Below are positions 3,077 to 44,837 of a stretch of 64,000 nucleotides of DNA, in pieces. The notes beneath the pieces are model-generated. The model did no database searches and was not told the origin of the DNA. It saw nothing but the letters and a program-made list of their open reading frames with translations. The position numbers were made by a program, and so were the translations under genes. Source of the DNA: Bacteroidota bacterium. GTDB lineage: Bacteria; Bacteroidota; Bacteroidia; Bacteroidales; JAAUTT01. Each line of letters starts with the position of its first letter. Within the stretch, counting starts at the first letter, position 1. The stretch lies in contig JAUZOO010000005.1 in the NCBI GenBank assembly GCA_030706405.1, positions 312,376 to 376,375 on the forward strand, in the 5' to 3' direction.

Positions 3077-4645
3077 CTATTTAACAATAACATTAAACAA
3101 TGTTAACCAACCTGTTGATGTTAAATTAGCTTTTACCGAAAGATTGATCCCTTTCTCGTTGTTTTTGGTCGTGTCGACGATAGCCACCGCCCAGATATAT
3201 TCTCCGGCAGGAACATTCTGAATGTCGGGAGTAAATTCATACGAAGTCGGGGTTCCGTATAGCCATTTGGAAAGGTCTGTATTGGTATCTACATATATAG
3301 ATTTTACCTCATTGGTACTTTTATCCAATAAAGCAAAGGCTACCTTATACTTTTGATTCCACTGTGGTAAGTTGGTAGGGCAATAGCCCATTCCCAGGTT
3401 TTTCCAACGATGAACAATCTTTATTTTAGAATTATTATTAACCGTTTTAGGTAACGACAGTTGATCAGGATACAGACGATATCCACCGGTAGCAATAAAC
3501 TTTTGAATCAGTTTATAGGCTGTCGAGAACCACGAACTTGTTTCGGTGATATCCCGGAGATCCATCATATTGACACGCGCTGCCATGGCATCGTCATATT
3601 CTCCCTGCCAGACATCTCCCCAGGTGAGGTATTTCCGAGAGTCCGCCAAATAGCCATTACCATTGTGCAGCCAGCCTCCTTCGCAGATTACAGGCCGGGA
3701 AGGAAACCACTCTTTAGCAAGTGCCTTTTCCCAACTCTGGTAATAGTCGGTCATTCCAAAGGCATCGTGCCGCAACATGTAACCTTTGTTAAAAGCACTG
3801 ACCAACATCGTTTTCGAATCCGGATCGGGACTGCTCCAACCCGAACCTGCGCCAATAAGCCGGTGATAATTGATAGCCAGCGGCACTTTGGTAAAATATT
3901 TCAGATATAGGTTTACTATCCAGTCGAATACCGGTTTTCTGTTTGCTGCATTCAGATAAATCATCGTATGACCTTCGCCCCATTTTCCGAGGCCATAGCC
4001 ATCGATAAAATCCACCACGTCCGGGTCATTAAATTTCGCAGCGAAAGCCTGAAGAAATTTTTCGTACTTTGCCTGAAAGATAGGATCGTCAGGGTATGGC
4101 GACCATACCGTTGCGCTTCCGGTTTGGGTTTCGTACCCTTGGGCTCCGGCATCTCTTACATATGTTGGAGTCTGATTATTATGTTTATCCCGGCTGTCAA
4201 CCGTAATTCTAAACGCAAGCTTCAAACCTCTTTCCTTAGCTCCATTTATCAACATTTTGAAAATATCGCTATTATCCCAGGCATACTTGCCTTCTTCGGG
4301 TTCCCAGTCGGACCAGCCTGTACGGATATATAGGACATTGGCGTAATCGGTGGCTCTCAGTTGGCTGCCATTTATGTTTTCAAACTTTGTCCAGAAATCA
4401 CTTGTTGCGCCGGCACTTCCGTAGATAGCCCAGCCGGTTAACGGATTTCGTATTAGTTTCTGGGTTTCGGGTTCAATAGTGGTAATATAATTCCCGGGAA
4501 CAGCGCTATCTGCAGTTGGCGAATCCGCAATTACCTCATCTTTCTCTTTCGAACTGCAAGCAAAGAAGCTAGACGATAATATCAGTATCAGAAACAGGTT
4601 GAATATTCTAGTCTTAGAACAGACTATGTATTTAGTACTTTTCAT
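3077..4645 (-). CDS. lipoprotein, putative glycoside hydrolase (GH42/GH35-like TIM barrel, DUF4832-like)
   Basis: 522-aa ORF with a lipoprotein signal (LSSSFFAC). WSDWEPEEGKYAWDN resembles the W..xEPxxGxYdf motif of GH42/GH35-type barrels. The family assignment is from memory only. The PUL context supports a carbohydrate-active role. Confidence 0.5.
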   Translation of the reverse strand: MKSTKYIVCSKTRIFNLFLILILSSSFFACSSKEKDEVIADSPTADSAVPGNYITTIEPETQKLIRNPLTGWAIYGSAGATSDFWTKFENINGSQLRATDYANVLYIRTGWSDWEPEEGKYAWDNSDIFKMLINGAKERGLKLAFRITVDSRDKHNNQTPTYVRDAGAQGYETQTGSATVWSPYPDDPIFQAKYEKFLQAFAAKFNDPDVVDFIDGYGLGKWGEGHTMIYLNAANRKPVFDWIVNLYLKYFTKVPLAINYHRLIGAGSGWSSPDPDSKTMLVSAFNKGYMLRHDAFGMTDYYQSWEKALAKEWFPSRPVICEGGWLHNGNGYLADSRKYLTWGDVWQGEYDDAMAARVNMMDLRDITETSSWFSTAYKLIQKFIATGGYRLYPDQLSLPKTVNNNSKIKIVHRWKNLGMGYCPTNLPQWNQKYKVAFALLDKSTNEVKSIYVDTNTDLSKWLYGTPTSYEFTPDIQNVPAGEYIWAVAIVDTTKNNEKGINLSVKANLTSTGWLTLFNVIVK

Positions 4646-35232: not shown

Positions 35233-38200
35233 ATGAAAACTTATTTTAGATACACCAGCCTCATTGCCGCCATTCTATGCCTGATTTCTTCAAGCTTGTT
35301 CTCGCAACAATCGGCTTTAGATAAACGTGTTGATGATCTTGTTAACGCGATGACCACCGAGGAAAAGATCAATCAATTAATTAATGTAGGATTTGGAGGC
35401 ACTCCTGCCAATACAAGGTTGAATATTCCCGGCTTTTTAATGAGCGACGGCCCTCATGGAGTTCGTTTCACGGCCGATGGATTTGGTCGGACAGCGACAT
35501 CCTTCCCAACGGGAATAGCCATGACCGCTACCTGGGACGAAGAGTTGGCTAAGAAAGTAGGAGAAGCGATGGGTTTGGAATTTTGGGCCTTTAACCGAAA
35601 TCAAATGTTGGGCCCGTGCATCGACCTTGCTCGTGATTCCCGTGGAGGTCGAACCGCCGAAAGTGGAGGTGAAGACCCTTTCTTGTCGGGACATTTGGGC
35701 AAAGCGATGACCATTGGAGTTCAAAAATTCCCGGTAATAGCTACCTTGAAACATTTCATGGGCGAAAGCAAGCAAATAAACCGTATGAACATGAATGTTC
35801 TCGCTACCGAACGTTGGCTGATGGACTTCTCCGGCTACAATTTCCGCACCGTGGTTCAGGATGCAGGGGTATTGAGTGTAATGGGAGCATATAATTCTAT
35901 AAACGGAGCCAAATGTTCAGAAAGCTCCTTGCTATTGAACACGATATTGCGCGAACGTTGGGGTTTCCCTTTTTATGTTGTTTCCGATTGGGCCAGCATT
36001 GGAGATGCCAAGAAAGCCATATTGGCCGGAACGGATGTGTGTATGGGTTCTTCTATTTATGCCGCAGACTTACCCACCTTGGTGGCCAATAACCTTATAA
36101 CCACAGCAGACCTCGACAGGGCTGTGAAAAAAGAGTTAAAAACAAAGATATTAAATGGAATGCTGGACTATTTCCCCAAAGGGAACGCCTCCTATGCCAA
36201 AACATCCGAAATACAGGCCGTCAATAAACTGGCTGCTCAAAAGTCTATTATCTTACTTAAAAATGCAAAGAAGTCAGACAACTCCCCTATTCTTCCTTTA
36301 AAGAAAACAGGTATAACCGTTGCGTTGATTGGGCCAAACGCCATGGCCGAAAATTTGAATTGCTACGGTAGCAGCAGAACCTATCCCTCCTATGCCATAA
36401 GTGTTAAAGAAGGACTGGAAGCTAAGATAGGTGCGACGAATGTTCAGTATGCCAAAGGATGCGATGTCAATTCAACCTCAACAACCGGTTTTGATGCAGC
36501 AAAAGCCATTGCAGCGGCGGCGGATATTGTGATTTTTGCCGGAGGTATAGACTCCACACAGGAAGGAGAGGGTTACGGCACCGGTCATGACCGTACTGGC
36601 GACAGCTTTGCTCTGCCGGCAATACAACAACAATTAATTAATGAGCTGGCAGCTGTAAATCCCAATATCGTTACCGTTATACAAAGCGGAGGGGTTTGTA
36701 GTCTCAACTCCTGTTTGTCATCAATAAAAGGATTGGTTTATTCGTTTTATGCCTCTCAGGAAGCCGGAACAGCCATAGCCGATGTTCTTTTTGGCGATTA
36801 CAATCCGGCAGGCCGTATGCCACTGTCAATGCCCAGGCAGGACAGCGATTTCCCATCCTGGGAAGAAGATGTTTTTCGCCGATTTACCGTAAACCTCGAT
36901 GGAGGCTACCGATGGCTTGACGAAAATAACATTACCCCGGAATATGCCTTTGGCTTTGGGTTGAGTTATACCACCTTTTCATACTCAAACTTGGTGATGC
37001 CAACCGCAGTTGCTGCCGGAGAACCTTTTACGGCAACTGTAACCGTTACCAACACCGGATCAATTGCCGGAGAAGAAGTCGTACAACTCTATGTATGCGC
37101 CCCTTCGGGCACATCGTTATGGATGCCCAAAAAACAATTACGCGGATTTCAGCGTATAGCCCTGGCAGCCGGGGAAACCAAAACCGTTACTTTTAATTTT
37201 TGTGCCGATCATTTTTATTACTGGAACGAAACCTCAAAAAAATACGAAGTTCAACCAGGAAGTTATGTATTTAAAGTAGGAGGATCTTCCGACAATCTCC
37301 CGCTTTCGCAAACAGTTACCTTTAACGACGGGGCAAAGAAGCCCGATCTCCGCATAACCCAAATCTATACGATGCCTCGTTACCCGATAAAGGGGCAACC
37401 TGTAAGCTTTTATGCACTGGTAAAAAATCAGGGAAATGCAACTACCCAAACACCTTATAACATATCCTTCAAAGTATCCGGGAAGGAAGTTGCCACCGCT
37501 TCACAAATTACCACCACAATTGCCCCCGGACAAGTTCAGTTGATTGCTTCGGGCAAGGAATGGAATGCCGATAATATTGAAAAGACGACATTGTCCGCCC
37601 AGGTATCTTTTGAGACCTCCGGTACCGAATGGGATTCTGAAAACAATAACTTCGCCCGTGACTATGAAGTGTTTAGTCCTGCCGTAGATTCGACCCTTAC
37701 GAACCTGGCTTACATGAAAAATGTTACGGCATCGTCCGAGTACAAAACAAATTACAGCAGCTTCATTGTCGATGGCGACTTGTCTACCCGTTGGGAATCG
37801 GGCAGAACGGACAACGAAAGTGTAACTATAGACCTGGAAGCCATTGGCGAAATAAAAAACATTACCATATACTGGGAGGTTGCTTATGCGCAAAAATATA
37901 GCATCGAAAAGTCAATGGATGGAAAGACCTGGAATGAAATAAAAAACATCATGACAGGAGCCGGTGGAGTTACCTCTTATGATTTTGATAAGTTCCAAGC
38001 CCGGTATATCCGTATCAAATGTTTGGAAAGAACAACTATCAATTCCTATAAATATGGTTTTTCCATCTACGAAGTGGAAGTAAACGGCACGCTTGTGCAA
38101 AGAATGCCGAGTGTGAAAATTGTGCCGATTAAAGACCCATTGATCCTTCCGTATGCAAAAACATATTTGGACGGCACACTATCAACAAATCCGGACCCAT

Positions 38201-39327
38201 CTGAAATGACATATCTTTGGAAACAAGTATCCGGACCGGCCCAGGCTGTTATCGAAAATCCGAATTCAGCGCTTTCGGTGGTGAATTTTAATACAGCAGG
38301 CACTTATGTTTTTCAATTAAGTATTTCAAACGGTACCAATACCGATTCAAAAGAAATTTCGATTGTAGTAAAATCTGTCGATGCCACTATTGATTTGGCA
38401 TTCAAGAAACCAACATCAGCCTCAAGTTCCGAAAAGATTTCGACATATCCGCAGGCTGCCGTAGATGGAGACGATGCAAATACCCGGTGGTCATCTTCGT
38501 ATAATAATAATCAGTGGTGGCAGGTCGATTTACTTCATCAGGTAACGCCATCTTCCATATCCATCATCTGGCAAACGGCGTATGCCAAGAAGTTCAATGT
38601 TCAAATTTCGGCCGATGGCACAACCTGGAATACTTACGCTACGAACGATGCTTTTACCGGCGGAACGTCAACCCTGGCCAACATCAATACCGTTACCGGA
38701 CGTTACGTAAGAGTAAACTGCGTGGAACGTCAAACAACGTATGGCTCTTCTTTCTTTTCGTTTAAACTGTTTGGCACCTTCCCTGGCACCAATCAGATAC
38801 CCAAAGCCAAAGCGCAAAGCAGCCTAAATACATTGGACAAGACCATAATTTTAGACGGAACAACCAGTACCGATGCCGACGGCGATGCCCTAACCTATAA
38901 ATGGGAACAACTGTCAGGCCCAACCTTTGTAAACATCGCCAACGCACAAAGTGCTGTGGCTTCGATAACGGGAATAAAGAATGGCTTTTATTCATTTAAA
39001 CTAACCGTTAATGATGGCAAAGACTTAGATTTTACGATAATCAATGTGTCTATGGGCCTAAATACCCAAACACCTCAAATCAATGGAGGGGAGAGCGCAA
39101 TAAAGGTCTACCCTAACCCGGTAAAAAATATGCTATACATAAGAAATTCGGGAGTAACCAAAGCCGACAGAGTAGATATTTATAGCATTACCGGAACATT
39201 AGTCATGTCCCAAAGAATTACCGAAGATAATATTTCAGTTTACCATCTTTCGGCGGGGATATATTGTGTTCGCATTTTCTCGCGGAACAAAGTGATCGGA
39301 ATCATGACTATTATTAAAGAAAATTAG
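35233..39327 (+). CDS. multidomain GH3 exo-glycosidase with CARDB-like, two F5/8-type-C (CBM32-like) and two PKD-like modules and a T9SS C-terminal sorting domain
   Basis: 1364-aa ORF. GH3 motifs are LKHFMGESKQINR and FYVVSDWASIGD. The CARDB-like segment is PDLRITQIYTMPRYPIKGQPVSFYALVKNQGN. Two discoidin-like segments carry DGDLSTRWES / DGDDANTRWSS. Two PKD-like segments read YLWKQVSGP / YKWEQLSGP. The terminal IKVYPNPVKNMLYI...SAGIYCVRIF matches the type-A T9SS CTD pattern. Confidence 0.88.
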   Translation: MKTYFRYTSLIAAILCLISSSLFSQQSALDKRVDDLVNAMTTEEKINQLINVGFGGTPANTRLNIPGFLMSDGPHGVRFTADGFGRTATSFPTGIAMTATWDEELAKKVGEAMGLEFWAFNRNQMLGPCIDLARDSRGGRTAESGGEDPFLSGHLGKAMTIGVQKFPVIATLKHFMGESKQINRMNMNVLATERWLMDFSGYNFRTVVQDAGVLSVMGAYNSINGAKCSESSLLLNTILRERWGFPFYVVSDWASIGDAKKAILAGTDVCMGSSIYAADLPTLVANNLITTADLDRAVKKELKTKILNGMLDYFPKGNASYAKTSEIQAVNKLAAQKSIILLKNAKKSDNSPILPLKKTGITVALIGPNAMAENLNCYGSSRTYPSYAISVKEGLEAKIGATNVQYAKGCDVNSTSTTGFDAAKAIAAAADIVIFAGGIDSTQEGEGYGTGHDRTGDSFALPAIQQQLINELAAVNPNIVTVIQSGGVCSLNSCLSSIKGLVYSFYASQEAGTAIADVLFGDYNPAGRMPLSMPRQDSDFPSWEEDVFRRFTVNLDGGYRWLDENNITPEYAFGFGLSYTTFSYSNLVMPTAVAAGEPFTATVTVTNTGSIAGEEVVQLYVCAPSGTSLWMPKKQLRGFQRIALAAGETKTVTFNFCADHFYYWNETSKKYEVQPGSYVFKVGGSSDNLPLSQTVTFNDGAKKPDLRITQIYTMPRYPIKGQPVSFYALVKNQGNATTQTPYNISFKVSGKEVATASQITTTIAPGQVQLIASGKEWNADNIEKTTLSAQVSFETSGTEWDSENNNFARDYEVFSPAVDSTLTNLAYMKNVTASSEYKTNYSSFIVDGDLSTRWESGRTDNESVTIDLEAIGEIKNITIYWEVAYAQKYSIEKSMDGKTWNEIKNIMTGAGGVTSYDFDKFQARYIRIKCLERTTINSYKYGFSIYEVEVNGTLVQRMPSVKIVPIKDPLILPYAKTYLDGTLSTNPDPSEMTYLWKQVSGPAQAVIENPNSALSVVNFNTAGTYVFQLSISNGTNTDSKEISIVVKSVDATIDLAFKKPTSASSSEKISTYPQAAVDGDDANTRWSSSYNNNQWWQVDLLHQVTPSSISIIWQTAYAKKFNVQISADGTTWNTYATNDAFTGGTSTLANINTVTGRYVRVNCVERQTTYGSSFFSFKLFGTFPGTNQIPKAKAQSSLNTLDKTIILDGTTSTDADGDALTYKWEQLSGPTFVNIANAQSAVASITGIKNGFYSFKLTVNDGKDLDFTIINVSMGLNTQTPQINGGESAIKVYPNPVKNMLYIRNSGVTKADRVDIYSITGTLVMSQRITEDNISVYHLSAGIYCVRIFSRNKVIGIMTIIKEN

Positions 39328-39404
39328 CCCTGTTAACCCGAGGCTATAAAATAGGAGTTCGGTGGATGGTTCTACCTTAGCCGAACGAAGAGACCTCGAG
39401 TTTT
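39328..39404 (+). repeat. 77-nt direct repeat, copy A (box CCCTGTTAACCCGAGGCTATAAAATAGG plus a GTTCGG..CCGAAC hairpin)
   Basis: It starts at the first base after the GH3 stop codon (TAG at 39325-39327). It is 76/77 identical to 41383-41459; the single difference is ACCTTAGCC versus ACCTAAGCC. Confidence 0.9.
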
Positions 39405-39551
39405 CTCAAAAACGATCCGTAACCACAAACTATGCACCATTGTTTTCAAAAACAGGTATCATAACCTTTCAATATAAGCCGCATAACTGATAAAGTCAAC
39501 AACACCGGGTTACAAACAAACCTCTTGAACTTCAACATAGGCTGGATATAG

Positions 39552-39662
39552 TAGCGAAGTGAGTATCTTAAACTAGCGAAGTGCACCACGTATACTATCG
39601 AAGTGAGCATCTTATACCATCGAAGTAGACCTCGGAGAACACCGAAATGACCTTATAGAAAG
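39552..39662 (+). repeat. tandem array of about five 22-bp units
   Basis: The units are TAGCGAAGTGAGTATCTTAAAC (39552-39573), TAGCGAAGTGCACCACGTATAC (39574-39595) and TATCGAAGTGAGCATCTTATAC (39596-39617). They are followed by CATCGAAGTAGACCTCGGAGAAC (39618-39640) and a degenerate ACCGAAATGACCTTATAGAAAG (39641-39662). The period is not a multiple of 3 and the units carry stop codons. Confidence 0.85.
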
Positions 39663-39744
39663 AAATAATCCCCGCTAACCCGAGGCTACAGCATAAGCAG
39701 AAAACTTTTTAACCTATGGCTAAACAATAATAGCTCATAATGTT

Positions 39745-39752
39745 TACATTTG
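39745..39752 (+). promoter_or_regulatory. possible Bacteroidota -7 promoter box (TAnnTTTG) upstream of the TIR-like gene
   Basis: TACATTTG fits the TAnnTTTG consensus and lies 155 nt upstream of the ATG at 39907. No clear -33 TTTG was found. A match this short is expected by chance about once per 4 kb per strand. Confidence 0.25.
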
Positions 39753-39906
39753 GTCGTAACTAAAAACTAACGGTTAATGCAACATCGGTTATATATGGTG
39801 GCTAACGATTACGGGTTAGGGATTCATTTTGCTGCGGATGTAATAGAGATATGCGCAATGCGTATGTACAGATGTTGTTTGTAATTACATATCATTCATA
39901 AGCACT

Positions 39907-41217
39907 ATGAACCATACAATTTTTTTTTCTTGGCAATCCGACTTAGAAAACAAATACAATCGTTCTTTTATTCAAGATGTACTCGAGAAAGCATCAAAAG
40001 CATTTTCAAAAGATAAAAATTTTTCAATAAATGCTGTAATAGATAGAGATACTTATGGTTTGGCTGGAAGTCCCTCCATTGTTGAATCAATAACTGATAA
40101 AATTGCGAAATCAGATGTTTTTATTTGTGATATATCAATAATAAATGCATCATCCAATGAAAGACCAATGCCAAACCCAAATGTCTTGTACGAATTAGGT
40201 TTCGCATCAGCAATTTTAGGTTGGGAAAGAATTATTCTAATACAAAACACTGCATATGGAAATGTGGAATTATTACCTTTCGACCTTCGTGGTAGAAGAA
40301 TTCTTCAATATAAATTAGACCAAACAATTAATAATAAATCTGAGGAAAAAAATAAATTAAAACAAACGTTAATAGAAATACTAAAACATGCATTAAGACA
40401 TTATAAATCAGATTATATTTCTAAAGAAAAAATTGTATGGTGGGGCAAATGGAATATCGAATCTAAAACAAAAGTCCGTGGAGGACAACTACACATTAGT
40501 AGAGTTTCATCTGATGCTTTTTTCTTCAACATTAAAATATTTGATGGTGCGCGTTCCGGTGATATTAGTGGAAAAGCACAAATTATCACACCAAATTCAG
40601 CATATGCAAGAATTAATAATATTGATAATAATTATTGCGAAATTATTTTTAGGAGGAGGTTAGAAGATGGCAATTGGTGGATTAATGTCGAAGAAAATGA
40701 ATTTTGTCGTAATTTTTGTGGTTTGAGTGCAACATTTGAAGGTTCTTATAAGCACGAAACAGAATTAGCTATTAACAATGGTTATTTAGATGAAATTGAT
40801 CTTAATGAAATTGAACGAATAGCAGGGAAGTACCTTCAACCATTCTTAAATAATTTTCAACAAATAAATTACTATACTGAGAATGATTATACAATATTAA
40901 TAGGAGGAGTAAAAGGGTTATATACAATAATGGAATCTATTGTCGTATTTAATAATTGGGGGTTAATTTGGTGCGCATTCCTCGATCCAAACGAAGATGA
41001 TGTTGTTGTACGATATTTTTCTAATATAATAAGTAAAGATTTGGAAAAACCTAAAGCGATAAAAGAATGGTTGTCAAATTTTTCAGACAAACCTTTATTT
41101 GAAAATGAAAACAATCAACAATATGATGCTTTTGAATTGTCCCCATTAACCCCGTTAACACGAGGCTATAAAATAAGAGTTCAGCGAACGGTTCTACCTC
41201 CGCCGAACTTATTATAA
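39907..41217 (+). CDS. TIR-like / nucleoside 2-deoxyribosyltransferase-like N-terminal domain protein with an uncharacterised C-terminal domain (candidate defence effector)
   Basis: 436-aa ORF. The N-terminus reads MNHTIFFSWQSDLENKYNRSFIQDVLEKA...SDVFICDISIIN...PNPNVLYELGFASAILGWERIILIQN, with Glu96 at 40192-40194. This fits the recalled pattern of prokaryotic TIR-like (COG4271/PF10137-type) domains. Residues about 170-436 are unrecognised. The gene is strongly AT-rich and has its own terminator. The last ~22 codons are derived from a copy of the flanking repeat box. Confidence 0.6.
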   Translation: MNHTIFFSWQSDLENKYNRSFIQDVLEKASKAFSKDKNFSINAVIDRDTYGLAGSPSIVESITDKIAKSDVFICDISIINASSNERPMPNPNVLYELGFASAILGWERIILIQNTAYGNVELLPFDLRGRRILQYKLDQTINNKSEEKNKLKQTLIEILKHALRHYKSDYISKEKIVWWGKWNIESKTKVRGGQLHISRVSSDAFFFNIKIFDGARSGDISGKAQIITPNSAYARINNIDNNYCEIIFRRRLEDGNWWINVEENEFCRNFCGLSATFEGSYKHETELAINNGYLDEIDLNEIERIAGKYLQPFLNNFQQINYYTENDYTILIGGVKGLYTIMESIVVFNNWGLIWCAFLDPNEDDVVVRYFSNIISKDLEKPKAIKEWLSNFSDKPLFENENNQQYDAFELSPLTPLTRGYKIRVQRTVLPPPNLL

Positions 41218-41236
41218 CAGACTATAGTCTGTTTTT
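41217..41236 (+). terminator. Rho-independent terminator of the TIR-like gene
   Basis: ACAGAC-TATA-GTCTGT (41217-41232) overlaps the stop codon and is followed by TTTTT (41232-41236). Confidence 0.7.
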
Positions 41237-41285
41237 AAAAAACGGCTTAAGCAAAGCTAAAGCTAACGAGAGGAGGCCTCCTCCC

Positions 41286-41459
41286 CCGCTAAGCTTAATG
41301 TTTGGAGCTGCTAAGCGGTCAATTATATTGCCGCTTGGAACATGGCCGAATTTGCAATTCGGTATTTAAACCAACAATAACTCCCTGTTAACCCGAGGCT
41401 ATAAAATAGGAGTTCGGTGGATGGTTCTACCTAAGCCGAACGAAGAGACCTCGAGTTTT
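41286..41459 (+). repeat. composite repeat module D (about 95-nt leader module plus the 77-nt box)
   Basis: 41318-41380 is 63/63 identical to 42257-42319 and contains the CCGAATT-TGC-AATTCGG hairpin. 41383-41459 is 76/77 identical to 39328-39404. Confidence 0.9.
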
Positions 41460-41528
41460 TCCCAAAACGGTTCTTTACTTTTAAACTGCTTGGGAAAATA
41501 TTTTGATTTAACGTTAATTTAGTTTTTC

Positions 41529-41584
41529 GAATAATAGCTAGTGCCTCGTTCCGCTAAGCTCCATTTCTGCACTAGCTATTATTC
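41529..41584. repeat. perfect 16-bp inverted repeat (stem-loop)
   Basis: GAATAATAGCTAGTGC (41529-41544) pairs with GCACTAGCTATTATTC (41569-41584). The 24-nt loop contains CCGCTAAGCT, the motif that also opens repeat modules D and E. Confidence 0.85.
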
Positions 41585-41710
41585 CTTTAAATCCTGTTTG
41601 CACAATCTTCTTTATACGCCCTCTTTATACTACCATTTTTAACGGCTCTCGGATAATCAATAGCATCTCTTGAGTGATCAGAGGCATCTCTTGAGTTAAA
41701 AAAGTTTCAT

Positions 41711-41878
41711 TGCTAACCAACAATGCCGTATTGCTAACCTGCAATATGGCATTGTTGGTTAGCATAAGCGTATTGTAGGTTTACAATGCCGCTTCGTAAA
41801 CCTACAATAGAGCTCTGTATGTCTACAATTTTGCTCCGCAAACCTGCAATGCCGTTTCGCAAACCTACAATTTTGCTC
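41711..41878. repeat. iteron-like array: eight contiguous 21-bp units with the core motif AAACCT(A/G)CAAT
   Basis: The units start at 41711, 41732, 41753, 41774, 41795, 41816, 41837 and 41858. The core is direct in six units and inverted in units 3 and 4. A perfect 17-bp IR lies at 41711-41727/41748-41764 and an 11-bp IR at 41774-41784/41796-41806. Confidence 0.85.
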
Positions 41879-42224
41879 CGCATGACTTGTCCTAAATTAG
41901 CTTGACAGATTATTACTGTTTTTATAGAAGAGATAACAAACATAATTTATAATCCTGTTATCTCCAACTGTGTTTTATTTAATACGGATTTAATCAACCG
42001 TCTTATTAGCAAACTGCTGATTATGCCTGCAAAATTTAACCTTTTTGCTGACCAGAACCACAGTTTTTCACCTAATTCCTGAATTCTTATACACTTCTTT
42101 TTTTAATACTTTTTCTGAGGACATTGCTTTTGTTATGCGCTGTTTTGCCAGACAGATCATTTGATGCAAGGATTTTACCTAAAATACTACCCGAGGTACA
42201 ACGGCAGAGATTTTGGATAAAACC

Positions 42225-42383
42225 CTGCTAAGCTTAATATTCGATGCAGTTAAGCTGTCAATTATATTGCCGCTTGGAACATGGCCGAATTTGCAATTCG
42301 GTATTTAAACCAACAATAAAGCCCCCGTTAACCAGAGGCTATAAAATAATCGTTCGGCTGAGGCAGAGTCCATAGCCGAACGA
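42225..42383 (+). repeat. composite repeat module E (diverged copy of module D)
   Basis: 42257-42319 is identical to 41318-41380. It is followed by CCCCCGTTAACCAGAGGCTATAAAATAA and a perfect 10-bp hairpin, TCGTTCGGCT..AGCCGAACGA (42350-42383). Confidence 0.85.
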
Positions 42384-42479
42384 TTATCAAAACGCACAAA
42401 AAAGTATTTCCTCACAATAACACAACTCACCAGTTGTTTTCCCAGCTAACCTTAGCTTTAATTTTGTAAACAAATTAGT

Positions 42480-44837
42480 TTACATCACCAGTAAATTATT
42501 TTCACCTTTTAATTTGTACGTTATTCCCTTCCAGATAAATATTCCCGTTGTATTTTGAGGAATACTAATGTTGATGTTCCATTTGTTATGTTTTAAGACA
42601 TAGCTTACACTAATCTTTCCATTTGGGTGCGGTATCTCGCCGCTAATTTTAGTCAATTTGCCTAAATGTGGTTCAATCTTTATTTTACTAAATCCCGGCG
42701 AATAACTATCGATACCTAACACCGTTCTGAAAAGCTCTACATTAGGGCCGCTCGCCCATGCGTGGCAATCGGAGCGTGTGGTATTGAGGTTTGGTTCCTC
42801 TGCCCAGGTAGTCAGGCCTATCTTTAAGCTTTCGCGCCATGGGTTTAACCAGTTCATATAATCGTCACCTAACCCGCCTTTTATCAGAGCCTGATGCAAA
42901 TAATAGCTAAAATACATACTGCATTTCGTCAGGCTACTGTCGTTGATAAGGCGTTTACTGAATGCCAGCTTATTCTCATCACTTACCACACCTGTGAGCA
43001 ATGCAAGTGCATTACAATGCTGCGAAAATGTTGTTCGTTCCCTGGTGTCGGCGTAAAGCCCTTTTGCTTCGTCCCAATATTTTTTACGAATAGTTTGCTT
43101 TAACTGATCCGCTTTTTTACGATAAAGGTCGGCATATACGGATAACCCGGACTGAGTTTCCATCTCAGCAGCCCATTCATATCCCCAAAGCAAGTGCATG
43201 TCGATAAGAGCCGATTCCCCATCGGCGCTTTTTGGCGGCGAACCAAAGTCCCAACCCTTAGCATCTGCCCAGTCAACAAAATTCCAGTACGGTGTGTTGT
43301 GCAACGAACCATCCGCTTGCTGGTATTTACTAAAAAAGCCGAGAATCGCTCTTACACTGGTCAGTTTGTCTTTGATGAACGAGGTGTCGTTCCGGTACAT
43401 CCAGTAATCGTGTAACATTCCGATGTAAAGCAATGAGAATGTAGGTATAATCTGTGTGGATTGGGTGGGGTAACGGCTGAGGGTAACACCTTCTGGTAGG
43501 CGCGATTCGTCTATTTGTTCGAGTGCATTGCGCGTCAAACGGTTGTCACTACTGTAAAAATAGCTGATCATCGCCTGTATGCGGGCATCGCCAATATATT
43601 GCAGCCGCTCATAATACTGACCTGTAAAATAATTGTCGTATGCGTTAAGTCTTGCCGTGCGCCATCCTGTATTTAATATTTCCGGTATCTCATTATTGTC
43701 CGAATTAAATGCAGCCTCTGCTTTGAACGGATATGCCGTAAAGGTTCCATATAGGCTATCAATAACCAAAGGCTCATTTGAGGTTTGCACTAGCAGCTGC
43801 ACATACCGGAAAGTACGAAAATTGAAAGAAGTATATGACTGTCCGGGTTGACCATTGGACGTAATGCTGTCCTTGAGTCCCCTGAATTCCATTCCCTCAA
43901 CCTCGTTGCGGTTACCTTTTCGCTTGAAATTGCTACCTTTTTCATAAAGAGCCTCGGCATAACCTAAGGATAGTCCGGCTCCCTTTCCGCCGCTGAACGT
44001 TATTGTCGGATATGCATTGGTCTCATGGGTTTGATCCAATAGAATGACAACTTTTTTATTTGCAGATATGGTCAATGGCAATTTGAGTGCTGAAAAACTA
44101 TCCATTCCTTGCACCTTTCGTACAACCGTGATGGGTTGGTAGGTCATTTCCATGGGAGGCAATGGCGATGGAACCAGCATATAGCCAAAGCCATCAGATA
44201 ATCCCTTTGGTTGACCACCCCAAAGATTTACTGCATTAGGCCACGAATTTTCGTCAACCTCTGACGAATTCCAATTGCTGACCGTTTTGTTCATATCAAC
44301 AAATTGTCCGTTAATGGAGGCAAAGTATCCAAAAATTGGAGAAAAGGCCTTATCCTCTACGCACTTCCAGGTATTATCGGTATTCAGAATCTCCTCTACT
44401 GAAGTGTTGCCTTGGATTATAAAACTTGTCCGAAGACTAACCTGGTATTCGGGACGGTATTCCGCTTCATTCCATACCATCGCCACCACCGTGTTTTTAC
44501 CAGCTGCAAGTAAACCGGAAATGTCAACCGTTTCATAATGCCAATAATGAAGATCACCCCGTGAAGGGCCTATCGATGCCAGTTTGCCATTGACATATAG
44601 TTTATAATGATTATCCGCCGATACGTGAATAATGAATTTAGACGGTTTGTCCTTAAGCTGTATGCTTTTGCGGAAATAATAAACGCCATAACTTGTACCT
44701 CGGTCAAAAGCTCTGTTAAATCCTATCCATTGCGCATTCCAAAGTCTGTTAGTGCGAAGTGTGTCAGTAATCTGACCGTAACTGTTTCCGGTCAAAAACC
44801 AACAAATAATTGATAAAATCAGAAAGTGCTTTTTCAT
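42480..44837 (-). CDS. alpha-L-rhamnosidase-like glycoside hydrolase (GH78-like six-hairpin enzyme)
   Basis: 785-aa ORF with a signal peptide. The N-terminal WNAQWIG...FIIHVSADNHYKLYVNGKLASIGP and the central YFTGQYYERLQYIGDARIQ / DCHAWASGP resemble Bac_rhamnosidase N and six-hairpin domains. The assignment is from memory. Confidence 0.6.
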   Translation of the reverse strand: MKKHFLILSIICWFLTGNSYGQITDTLRTNRLWNAQWIGFNRAFDRGTSYGVYYFRKSIQLKDKPSKFIIHVSADNHYKLYVNGKLASIGPSRGDLHYWHYETVDISGLLAAGKNTVVAMVWNEAEYRPEYQVSLRTSFIIQGNTSVEEILNTDNTWKCVEDKAFSPIFGYFASINGQFVDMNKTVSNWNSSEVDENSWPNAVNLWGGQPKGLSDGFGYMLVPSPLPPMEMTYQPITVVRKVQGMDSFSALKLPLTISANKKVVILLDQTHETNAYPTITFSGGKGAGLSLGYAEALYEKGSNFKRKGNRNEVEGMEFRGLKDSITSNGQPGQSYTSFNFRTFRYVQLLVQTSNEPLVIDSLYGTFTAYPFKAEAAFNSDNNEIPEILNTGWRTARLNAYDNYFTGQYYERLQYIGDARIQAMISYFYSSDNRLTRNALEQIDESRLPEGVTLSRYPTQSTQIIPTFSLLYIGMLHDYWMYRNDTSFIKDKLTSVRAILGFFSKYQQADGSLHNTPYWNFVDWADAKGWDFGSPPKSADGESALIDMHLLWGYEWAAEMETQSGLSVYADLYRKKADQLKQTIRKKYWDEAKGLYADTRERTTFSQHCNALALLTGVVSDENKLAFSKRLINDSSLTKCSMYFSYYLHQALIKGGLGDDYMNWLNPWRESLKIGLTTWAEEPNLNTTRSDCHAWASGPNVELFRTVLGIDSYSPGFSKIKIEPHLGKLTKISGEIPHPNGKISVSYVLKHNKWNINISIPQNTTGIFIWKGITYKLKGENNLLVM

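Follow-up and report, generated by a model that had tools for sequence, protein, structure and literature searches.

The window analysed here is a 64-kb stretch of a 398-kb contig from a soil Bacteroidota bacterium. Within it, the ~3-kb gap between the convergent genes GH3 and GH78 (the islet) is a patchwork of short, hairpin-bearing repeats. Its relatives X1 (~98% identical) and X2-X5 (a ~90% identical soil relative) are known from Logan contigs, which show presence and not absence. The features are as follows, in window coordinates.

35233..39327, + strand: GH3 glycosidase gene (Pfam Glyco_hydro_3/3_C, F5_F8_type_C, PKD, Por_Secre_tail)
39328..39404, + strand: unit A; box 39328-39353, stem 39357-39366 with 39377-39386; weaker family similarity to ~39440
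39405..39546, no strand: spacer R1, the ancestral right flank of A, joined to A in relatives' contigs
39547..39634, + strand: 22-nt tandem array, consensus TATACTAGCGAAGTGAGCATCT, 3.6-4 copies (TRF)
39653..39766, + strand: unit B, repeating the entire A junction in decayed form (repeat-family alignment); box 39670-39695
39872..39890, + strand: upstream inverted-repeat arm of the TIR-like gene family, GATGTTGTTTGTAATTACA; this member lacks the downstream arm
39907..41217, + strand: TIR-like gene, 436 aa, 29% G+C; native part to ~41136, the rest from unit C
41141..41210, + strand: unit C; box 41150-41175, hairpin 41179-41188 with 41199-41208
41216..41240, + strand: small hairpin AACAGAC..GTCTGTT, then a T run (inverted repeat and fold)
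41284..41382, + strand: module M2a; CCGCTAAGCT motif, variable linker, two-hairpin core 41309-41368, tail TTAAACCAACAATAA
41383..41459, + strand: unit D; box 41383-41408, hairpin 41412-41441
41465..41617, no strand: module M3; perfect 16-bp inverted repeat 41529-41544 with 41569-41584, CCGCTAAGCT motif in the loop
41644..41887, + strand: two 21-nt-unit arrays, 41656-41696 (2 copies) and 41700-41887 (~9 copies, CAATGCCGYTTCGCAAACCTA)
41888..42222, no strand: A/T-rich unique stretch, 98% identity in X1, absent from the X2-X5 contigs
42223..42322, + strand: module M2b; core equal to that of M2a over 63 nt (42257-42319)
42323..42387, - strand: unit E; box 42323-42348, perfect 14-bp hairpin 42346-42359 with 42374-42387
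42480..44837, - strand: GH78 alpha-L-rhamnosidase gene (Pfam), convergent with GH3

The GH3 product carries a T9SS C-terminal sorting domain, and the TAG stop of its gene abuts unit A, a junction kept in X1 and X2-X4. The 21-nt arrays hold internal inverted repeats.

The box-hairpin repeat family

Five copies (A to E) of a box followed by a hairpin had been described in the first-pass annotation, and all five were found in place, on the + strand and confined to 39328-42387. Its comparisons were equally exact: A and D are identical at 76 of 77 positions (sole mismatch 39378 T vs 41433 A) with a spacing of 2055 bp, and the second module ahead of D and E is identical over 63 nt (41318-41380 and 42257-42319). 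The similarity of that module was found to reach ~100 nt (41284-41385 vs 42223-42324, 90%). The repeat unit itself exists as claimed but proved longer: it measures ~110-120 nt, and an ..AAAACG..C.T.AC.. stretch marks the far end of its weaker similarity. All five units begin at the same base (CCCYG), 0-2 nt past a stop codon or at an ORF end, and in one orientation. Unit B consists of 17 nt like the GH3 3' coding end, the box, a ruined hairpin and a CGTAAC..AAACTA stretch, and a 9-nt partial duplication of the box start (41141-41149, CCCCATTAA/CCCCGTTAA) lies ahead of C.

The 22-nt box core (at most 3 mismatches) occurs four times in the window, always in the islet, with 0 occurrences expected from 100 shuffles. 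No box was found in the rest of the 64-kb window or downstream of GH78 orthologues (79-86% aa identity, L003-L008 and L015), and only chance matches in 185,579 reference genomes and the JGI metagenomes. With two loci in the relative's metagenome, it is not the ubiquitous REP or terminator element that the annotation had named as the contrary case, and the islet repeats are lineage-specific. A dispersed repeat of the REP/BIME type was rejected on these counts (within the 64 kb the box unit never occurs beyond the islet, and each X2-X4 run has 2 loci); dispersal is seen for the M2 core and M3, unlike the box unit. Enterobacterial REP/BIME and pneumococcal BOX elements are likewise modular mosaics that lie outside genes, at their 3' ends, and form hairpins; some terminate transcription or stabilise mRNA. 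Such families run to tens or hundreds of scattered copies whose orientation often alternates, whereas the islet box occupies one locus in one orientation.

An A/T run ahead of the hairpin on the + strand had been correctly noted, and the layout had been judged more like cassettes or att scars than ordinary terminators. That judgement considered one strand only. Since the A/T run precedes the hairpin on the + strand, it follows it on the minus strand, which is the order of an intrinsic terminator. Read in that direction, A, C, D and E display a 6-15-bp GC-rich stem and then UAUUUUAUAG, and so have in form what characterises a putative intrinsic terminator: a stable GC-rich stem-loop and a U-rich tract, downstream of a gene. 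C and E fold strongly on this strand (z = -5.1 and -5.8), and the hairpin of C folds better on it than on the + strand, with G-U pairs (-39.7 vs -22.5 kcal/mol). A simple terminator scanner missed the units because their loops exceed 8 nt. Unit E, which reads on the minus strand as the hairpin and then UUAUUUUAUAG, 93 nt downstream of the GH78 stop, is correctly placed and oriented for a candidate GH78 terminator. Ordinary intrinsic terminators differ in sharing no sequence beyond the stem and U tract and in not recurring five times in 3 kb, and the U tract of the islet units is interrupted.

From their sequence we infer terminator activity of the units; X1 RNA contigs (either strand; DNA carry-over possible) span both A and E, which counts against it. 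Hairpin pairing is held while the loop drifts (83% of cells pair vs 19-44% with partners slid), and both sides change at 3 of 10 stem pairs, e.g. 39359 T>C with 39384 A>G in X2. Covariation statistics were not above shuffle controls, so that structural selection is only suggested. The box, adjacent to the hairpin, is a quasi-palindrome around GTTAAC whose centre varies in orthologues (GTCAAC in X1, GTTAAA in X2). The small hairpin at 41216-41240 is terminator-like in sequence for the TIR-like gene, on the + strand.

Variation among relatives

In the ~90% identical soil relative the box was found only at the A and E positions, with only two loci in each of runs X2-X4. A and E are kept at both gene ends, A in X1 and X2-X4 and E in X1 and X2-X5. 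Units C and D and the TIR-like gene were not seen in the X1 and X2-X5 contigs, and no contig of X1-X5 held a counterpart of unit D. The locus is not identical in relatives, whereas identity and synteny in all of them were what the annotation had set against its own reading: in the ~90% relative the TIR-like gene is absent and the A-E interior is different. As the box is not ubiquitous and the locus differs in relatives, the proposed box - cargo - box layout is real, in the form repeat - variable content - repeat. The repeat anatomy and the strain-to-strain variation are direct observations.

Spacer R1 is continuous with A on a 2369-nt contig of the relative and, up to 39437, on an X1 contig. 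The 22-nt array spans ~310 nt in the relative, its copy number being variable, and the relative's contig departs from the window after it. An X1 contig diverges from the window at 42225, where M2b has its left edge, and an X1 contig starts exactly at 42257. Strain differences start or end at module edges: after the 22-nt array, at 42225 and at the box/E junction. The M2 core was found in at least 3 other contexts in X2-X4, with no box after it. In X2 and X5, M3 lies on other contigs with unlike flanks at ~3x depth; two of its substitutions compensate each other (41542 T>A with 41571 A>T). Pieces of the 21-nt array in X2-X5 are on separate contigs with different flanks. Unit A in X1 differs at 9 of 77 positions (88% alike), against at most 2 in ~100 in the adjoining coding DNA. 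No contig with an empty GH3-box-GH78 junction was seen in the relatives.

A foreign TIR-like gene that has lost its stop

The TIR-like ORF (39907-41217) does terminate inside copy C, as first reported: its codons 412-436 and its stop codon come from unit C. All 10 homologues (405-412 aa) stop 25 codons earlier, and the tail SPLTPLTRGYKIRVQRTVLPPPNLL is therefore repeat-derived. The ORF is foreign and has lost its own stop. Its G+C is 29%, vs 42-44%; nucleotide homology to the closest homologue (L012) is limited to 39883-41126; and its homologues occupy unrelated contexts, no box being found at homologues elsewhere. The protein matches PF10137 (27.9 bits, cut-off 24.7) and PADLOC TIR effectors (E ~1e-6). 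Its AF2 model (pLDDT 84) has a TIR/NDT-like N-terminal domain and a disordered tail (407-436), and compares with the TIR domain of TIR-STING 9lmq at an E of 1.5e-4. With this modelled TIR / nucleoside 2-deoxyribosyltransferase-like fold, the cargo is a predicted TIR-domain defence effector.

Origin of the islet

The islet looks like a recombination-prone repeat array, not a proven cassette system. We propose, and give it about an even chance of being right, that local terminator-bearing repeats, segmentally duplicated and gene-converted, act as portable homology turning over the islet contents. Each ~110-120-nt unit would be a paralogous copy of a local minus-strand intrinsic terminator, the box being its U-rich part. 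E would terminate GH78, and A, back to back with the GH3 stop, would halt antisense transcription entering GH3. The copies would have multiplied via local segmental duplication, B keeping 17 nt of the GH3 coding end and D and E each carrying M2, and gene conversion would keep them alike (A/D 98.7% vs 88% for the orthologous A in the 98-99% related strain). Gene conversion between old paralogues accounts for the near-identity of A and D just as well as site-specific recombination, and the weak homology past the 77-nt identity is as expected of a conversion tract between them.

The repeats, the M2/M3 modules and the 21/22-nt arrays would form homology patches in an otherwise unconstrained gap, and would therefore be substrates for RecA-type and illegitimate recombination, by unequal exchange, deletion or capture of incoming DNA. 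Under this proposal, contents would differ between close strains, with breakpoints at module edges, because the repeats recombine; both gene conversion and recombination as the cause of the turnover are what we infer. The low-GC TIR-like gene may have arrived with hardly any sequence beyond its ORF. Its stop codon and the downstream inverted-repeat arm would have been lost afterwards, in a deletion or junction event that fused the ORF in frame to C, which would now supply 25 disordered codons and the stop. Counting against the proposal, the shared start and orientation of the units are neater than random duplication would give, and the ORF meets the box exactly at the native stop, a precision that selection by itself would not demand. 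As 64 kb of the 398-kb contig were covered, further copies may lie elsewhere in this genome.

Alternatively, the box-hairpin unit, M2 and M3 might be non-autonomous mobile elements, MITE-, REP- or BOX-like, piled up in the islet by transposition into intergenic DNA, perhaps favouring terminators or stop-codon-proximal sites. We consider this unlikely. The M2 core and M3 do occur in several unrelated contexts of the relative's metagenome (M3 at ~3x depth), and the modules are sharp-edged and hairpin-rich and combine modularly (M2 with or without box), as also seen in pneumococcal BOX and E. coli BIME elements. The box unit, however, is at one locus only (window, relatives, 185,579 genomes, JGI metagenomes), and the units show no inverted copies, terminal inverted repeats or target-site duplications. 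The only candidate for such a duplication is the 9-nt one at the left end of C; as the unit ends have no terminal inverted repeats, and A, C, D and E have no matching pair of short direct repeats on either side, a MITE was rejected. Finally, the GH3 coding sequence contained in B speaks for segmental duplication and against transposition.

A site-specific cassette array, in which box and hairpin are the site of a recombinase encoded elsewhere in the genome (attC-like, or pdif-like with chromosomal XerC/D) and box-ended segments are cassettes, the youngest being the TIR ORF with its fused unit C, seems quite unlikely. Integron cassettes and pdif modules share with the islet the repeat - single gene - repeat layout, and in integron cassettes ORF ends abut or overlap the site, as the TIR ORF does with C. 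Modular systems lacking their own recombinase exist, the recombinase of Acinetobacter pdif modules acting in trans (PMC6449649). The sharp left unit edge directly after stop codons in the same orientation, the 2055-bp foreign single-gene segment between near-identical 77-nt direct repeats, the replacement of the ORF stop exactly at the box, and a box that is confined to one variable locus rather than dispersed, with contents varying between strains, all favour such an array.

For the cassette reading advanced in the first-pass annotation, however, no sign of site-specific recombination was found: a domain scan of ORFs of at least 150 aa, covering ~0-57 kb of the 64-kb window, gave no recombinase, and neither attC-like R''/R' boxes nor a junction from a circle or deletion came to light. 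The box is off the attC consensus (R'' RYYYAAC, R' GTTRRRY): by inspection, neither TGTTAAC / GTTTTCT on the + strand nor AGAAAAC / GTTAACA on the minus strand fits, and its GTTAAC centre varies. An integron cassette array was rejected further as the islet has no IntI gene, adjacent intI with attI, recognisable attC cluster or R''/L''/L'/R' architecture, and its copies share sequence, whereas attC sites conserve structure and not sequence. It differs from pdif modules in lacking an 11-6-11 dif-like site, in having direct, not alternating, repeats and in showing no mobility. Three of the four 'cassettes' are non-coding, and TIR homologues elsewhere carry no box. No excision circle, deletion or box-to-box excision junction was seen in the relatives' contigs; the only box-to-box joint reported (41402 to 42344) is an alignment effect, the relative's E-locus box simply aligning better to D. 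An attL/attR-bounded integrated element was likewise rejected: no integrase was found (ORFs scanned, ~0-57 kb), and the relative has after A the window's own A flank. That the ancestral right flank follows A rather than D is a poor fit to simple insertion at a single att site. That the box-hairpin is the site of a host recombinase acting in trans, the islet being a chromosomal integrase-less single-gene cassette array and the TIR-C fusion a case of cassette genesis, is in our view very unlikely. If true, such a trans-acting system would give Bacteroidota a gene-capture platform of a new kind, and would offer a rare view of an ORF becoming coupled to a recombination site.

Highly improbable, and the least probable of these readings, is tandem accretion at an att site in the GH3 3' end, with successive integrative elements each restoring the gene end, adding a box (e14 at icd is a precedent) and later decaying: B duplicates the last 17 nt of GH3 with the box, the direct repeats include decaying copies and the islet holds a foreign low-GC gene and iteron-like 21/22-nt arrays, but no integrase or other element genes are left (ORFs scanned, ~0-57 kb), the segments are no longer than 0.25-1.5 kb, E goes with the gene end on the other side (GH78), and M2 and M3 dispersed independently.

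The preferred reading, turnover through local terminator-bearing repeats, may be compared with two systems of Neisseria. In NIME arrays, dRS3 repeats separate RS elements, so that one short conserved repeat recurs between diverse modules of 50-150 bp. The arrays vary in repeat number and length between strains, and the role proposed for them is to favour recombination and the exchange of neighbouring sequence (PMC1797815). The islet likewise has a recurring repeat between diverse modules, is strain-variable and has conserved genes outside. The dRS3 sequence is absent from the islet, and the resemblance is therefore functional only, not one of family membership. dRS3 is a 20-bp inverted repeat (ATTCCC N8 GGGAAT) present in hundreds per genome and a phage integration target, whereas the islet repeat is a 26-nt box plus hairpin at one locus, with no known recombinase, in a Bacteroidota bacterium with no known link to natural transformation. 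Minimal mobile elements are different small gene sets lying between conserved genes without a mobility gene, their exchange being thought to go through flanking homology (PMC1797815). The islet, too, lies between GH3 and GH78 with strain-variable contents, and no mobility gene was found in it. However, that concept needs no internal repeats, while the islet flanks include A and E and its interior is mostly non-coding, and no single contig was seen to link GH3 with GH78 in the relatives.

If the preferred reading is true, the islet would be a clear non-Neisseria, non-enterobacterial case of terminator-derived repeats making a recombination-prone islet, able to acquire a defence gene without a mobility gene. 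Not surprising in principle, this would be useful for understanding recombinase-less defence 'hotspots'. The repeats also have a concrete cost: the captured gene no longer has a stop codon of its own, and its product ends in 25 residues encoded by the repeat.

Repeat units and modules of the GH3-GH78 islet

By domain annotation the window is chromosomal DNA with a locus for polysaccharide utilisation. The locus combines GH2, GH3, GH36, GH43 and GH78 enzymes with SusC/SusD pairs, a hybrid two-component regulator and a T9SS sorting domain, and behind it come an AraC regulator, two tRNA genes, mutS and secDF. The nearest named relatives of the GH78 protein belong to Mucilaginibacter and Niabella (63-64% amino acid identity). 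The GH3 and GH78 genes are convergent and separated by a gap of 3.15 kb, here called the islet. All the elements that the first-pass annotation had described in this gap exist: five units (A to E), each made of a box (26 nt, with a 22-nt core) and a hairpin, A and D differing at 1 base in 77, and a module M2 preceding both D (M2a) and E (M2b), with an exactly duplicated core of 63 nt. The features are the following:

35233-39327, plus strand: GH3 gene, convergent with GH78
39328-39404, plus strand: unit A
39547-39634: 22-nt tandem array (TATACTAGCGAAGTGAGCATCT), about 4 units, 88 nt
39670-39695, plus strand: unit B, degenerate
39907-41217, plus strand: TIR-like gene, 436 aa, ending inside unit C
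41150-41210, plus strand: unit C
41318-41380: 63-nt core of M2a
41383-41459, plus strand: unit D
41465-41617: module M3, perfect 16-bp hairpin whose loop contains CCGCTAAGCT
41644-41887: two arrays of 21-nt units, about eleven units, with nested inverted repeats
42257-42319: 63-nt core of M2b
42323-42387, plus strand: unit E
42480-44837, minus strand: GH78 gene, convergent with GH3

Alignment of the five copies showed that the repeat unit is really about 110-120 nt long, longer than first described, and ordered as box, hairpin, A-rich run to ..AAAACG and then a C.T.AC..AAAC stretch; the similarity between A and D extends, weaker, past the 77 nt. Unit B is a decayed duplicate of the entire A junction that still contains the final 17 nt of the GH3 reading frame, and C has a 9-nt partial box duplication directly 5' of it. 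All units have the same first base and a single orientation, the boxes starting at TAG+0 (A), TAA+1 (B) and TAA+2 (D and E) relative to a stop codon. Allowing up to 3 mismatches, the box core occurs 4 times in the 64 kb, every time inside the islet, for 0 occurrences expected from shuffles.

The 10-mer CCGCTAAGCT in the M3 loop is the one that opens both M2 copies. The period of the 21-nt arrays equals two helical turns and is iteron- or operator-like; the only ORF near them, on the minus strand at 41734-41943 (69 aa), is doubtful and matches nothing in Pfam or PADLOC. M2 was also considered as the decayed 3' end of a gene and dropped, no convincing reading frame being found, as was a mini-hairpin inside the box, inconsistent from copy to copy.

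It had been remarked that the A/T run lies 5' of the hairpin on the plus strand, which is correct, and the terminator reading had been set aside; the terminator form does hold on the opposite strand. Read on the minus strand, each unit presents a GC-rich stem (6-15 bp) and, directly after it, (N3-5)UAUUUUAUAG, the layout of a predicted intrinsic terminator. Unit E is suitably oriented and lies 93 nt past the stop codon of GH78. The minus-strand folds are far stronger than those of shuffles (z = -5.1 for C and -5.8 for E), and the stem of C needs G-U pairs, available on that strand only. Over seven copies (the five of the window and reconstructed orthologues), 83% of the stem cells pair versus 19-44% when the partners are slid, and 3 of the 10 stem pairs have changed on both sides; these figures do not exceed column shuffles, so that structural selection on the hairpin is suggested, not proven. 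A and D also have an outer stem, CCGAGG/CCTCGAG, which was rejected as a plus-strand terminator because its 3' arm has changed without compensation in two relatives, those of the metatranscriptome run X1 and of the soil metagenome run X2. Searching Rfam, at gathering thresholds and at E<5, gave nothing credible: the best match, to the OrzO-P antitoxin RNA (42430-42502, spanning the GH78 stop codon), is below threshold (37.7 bits versus 60, E 0.0012) and probably due to chance, and BTnc231 reached an E-value of 0.8.

Conservation of the islet in public collections and in relatives

The box was searched as an exact pattern with 20 specified bases. There was a single matching contig among 185,579 species genomes and another among the JGI metagenome contigs (L001 and L002); neither has a hairpin, and both are chance matches. 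The pattern was absent from viral contigs, as was the M2 core in an exact-pattern scan, and the whole islet had no BLASTN match among plasmids and phages. No box was found at ten GH78 orthologue loci (79-86% amino acid identity; L003-L011 and L015), and synteny is not conserved there, so these loci provide no empty-site comparison. The possibility that the box is a genome-wide element thus finds no evidence in the genome, metagenome, viral, plasmid and phage collections or at the GH78 orthologue loci, so the box family is young and restricted to this lineage. On four of the metagenome contigs (L003-L006), the GH78 orthologue (86% identical) is broken into ORFs of 195 and 557 aa beside a Bro-N gene, and appears to be decaying in that lineage. 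In L007, a different local repeat (AACAGGGCTACGCCCCTT.. / AACAGGGCTAGCGCCCCTT..) is found at 3300-3400, 3' of an 86% identical orthologue; other lineages may therefore have repeats of their own at the GH78 gene end.

The close relative in X1 is represented by contigs 95-99% identical to the window, covering the GH3 end and unit A up to 39437, 41891-42225 and 42257-42600. Its A is changed at 9 of the 77 positions, with adjoining coding DNA almost identical. One contig departs from the window precisely at 42225, where M2b has its left edge; another starts exactly at 42257, the start of the duplicated core, as expected from a repeat boundary in a de Bruijn assembly.

Four soil metagenome runs (X2-X5) contain a relative about 88-92% identical to the window, seen in Logan contigs, which show presence and not absence. 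There A again lies at the GH3 stop, followed by the same spacer, and the 22-nt array extends over about 310 nt (about 14 units) versus 88 nt in the window. Past this array, a 2369-nt contig continues with about 1 kb of unlike sequence, and the TIR gene was not found in the X2-X5 contigs, informative for presence only. Since the array is kept in a relative without the TIR gene, it is no regulatory element of that gene. The other end of the islet is represented by a 4011-nt contig with the M2 tail, a box, an E-type hairpin and the GH78 end, its upstream 3.6 kb being unlike the window save for one M2 core about 890 nt away. In each of X2-X4, only the GH3-end and GH78-end box loci were present. 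The M2 core occurs in at least 3 contexts in X2-X4, with no box after it. M3 was found in X2 and X5 on a contig of 6.4 kb that has threefold depth and unlike flanks, its 16-bp stem bearing a compensatory change (41542 T>A with 41571 A>T), and 21-nt arrays lie on further contigs of the same relative with different flanks. Units A and E are old and keep fixed places at the ends of the two genes; the interior of the islet turns over between strains, with changes that start or stop at module edges. The islet is a lineage-specific form of a known type of feature, a mosaic array of intergenic repeats at a variable site. Upstream of the TIR gene, two stretches of 39-42 nt (39772-39810 and 39835-39876) recur at about 88% identity on unrelated X2-X4 contigs, which suggests that more short dispersed modules exist.

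The TIR-like gene

The ORF at 39907-41217 encodes a CAP12/Pycsar-type TIR domain (PF10137, above threshold) and also matches PADLOC TIR effectors. In an AlphaFold model based on 64 homologues (pLDDT 84), the N-terminus is predicted to adopt a TIR / nucleoside-deoxyribosyltransferase-like fold, the top PDB matches being the TIR domain of TIR-STING. Residues 175-400, the C-terminal two thirds of the protein, are confidently modelled as an all-beta domain, which resembles small beta-barrel ligand binders only weakly and may be the sensor domain of a single-gene TIR defence protein. The tail (residues 407-436) is predicted to be disordered.

Nearly all of the approximately 260 homologues are 405-412 aa long, and 10 out of 10 aligned stop 25 codons earlier than the ORF of the window. 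Nucleotide homology to the closest one (L012, 82%) is limited to 39883-41126. The homologues are found in unrelated neighbourhoods, distant members being located on conjugative Providencia and Proteus plasmids, and the G+C content of the gene is 29% versus 42-44% in its surroundings. The short homologues, the ORF-limited homology, the unrelated contexts and the low G+C together argue that the ORF is foreign and came with hardly any flanking DNA; the gene looks recently joined to the repeat. The ORF/box junction coincides exactly with the native stop, and the alignments indicate that the stop codon of the foreign ORF was replaced at the start of unit C. A conserved inverted repeat brackets this gene family: one arm, GTTGTGTGCAATTG, precedes the ATG by about 32-44 nt, and its complement lies 1-5 nt past the stop (arm matches of 15/17, 13/15 and 10/12; L012 122-138 and 1406-1422, L014, L017-L019). 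The window has only the upstream arm (39872-39890), the downstream one being lost. This repeat could mark a unit of gene movement, or reflect pairing between 5' and 3' UTRs.

Origin of the mosaic

The first-pass annotation compared the layout to cassette arrays or att-like recombination scars. Its variability and modularity are confirmed; site-specific recombination is not shown. No recombinase is encoded in the scanned parts of the window, and an attC or dif-like reading of the box was rejected on sequence. Nor does the arrangement match a circle simply inserted at one att site, because the ancestral right flank of A is next to A and not to D.

A and D are 98.7% identical, against 88% between the A orthologues of near-identical strains, which means that either A or D was very recently copied from the other. 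The weaker homology beyond the 77 nt points to gene conversion between old paralogues, with a tract that stops on the left where the homology ends. Such conversion would explain the sharp 77-nt identity without a dedicated recombinase. An argument from bases derived in A and D versus all other copies was dropped, the A of X2 having the same bases at 39363 and 39379. Since conversion fits, circle insertion does not, no recombinase was found and the box is neither attC nor dif, we favour a repeat array, in a scenario to which we give about an even chance: terminator-bearing local repeats would have multiplied by segmental duplication, been homogenised by conversion, and supplied portable homology that allows unequal exchange, deletions and the capture of foreign DNA.

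Small mobile non-autonomous elements, proposed mainly for M2 and M3, seem to us an unlikely alternative. Slightly less probable again is a cassette system that acts in trans like pdif modules (PMC6449649), with which the shared first base directly after a stop codon, the common orientation and the exact junction at the native TIR stop would agree. These regularities could be due to chance, as they come down to no more than two or three independent events: B derives from A, and D and E have M2 in common. Decayed tandem accretion at an att site is improbable.

The behaviour proposed for the favoured repeat array resembles the one proposed for the neisserial NIME arrays and minimal mobile elements (PMC1797815). 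The 77 bases of A/D identity in direct orientation predict RecA-mediated loss of the 2055-bp TIR segment.
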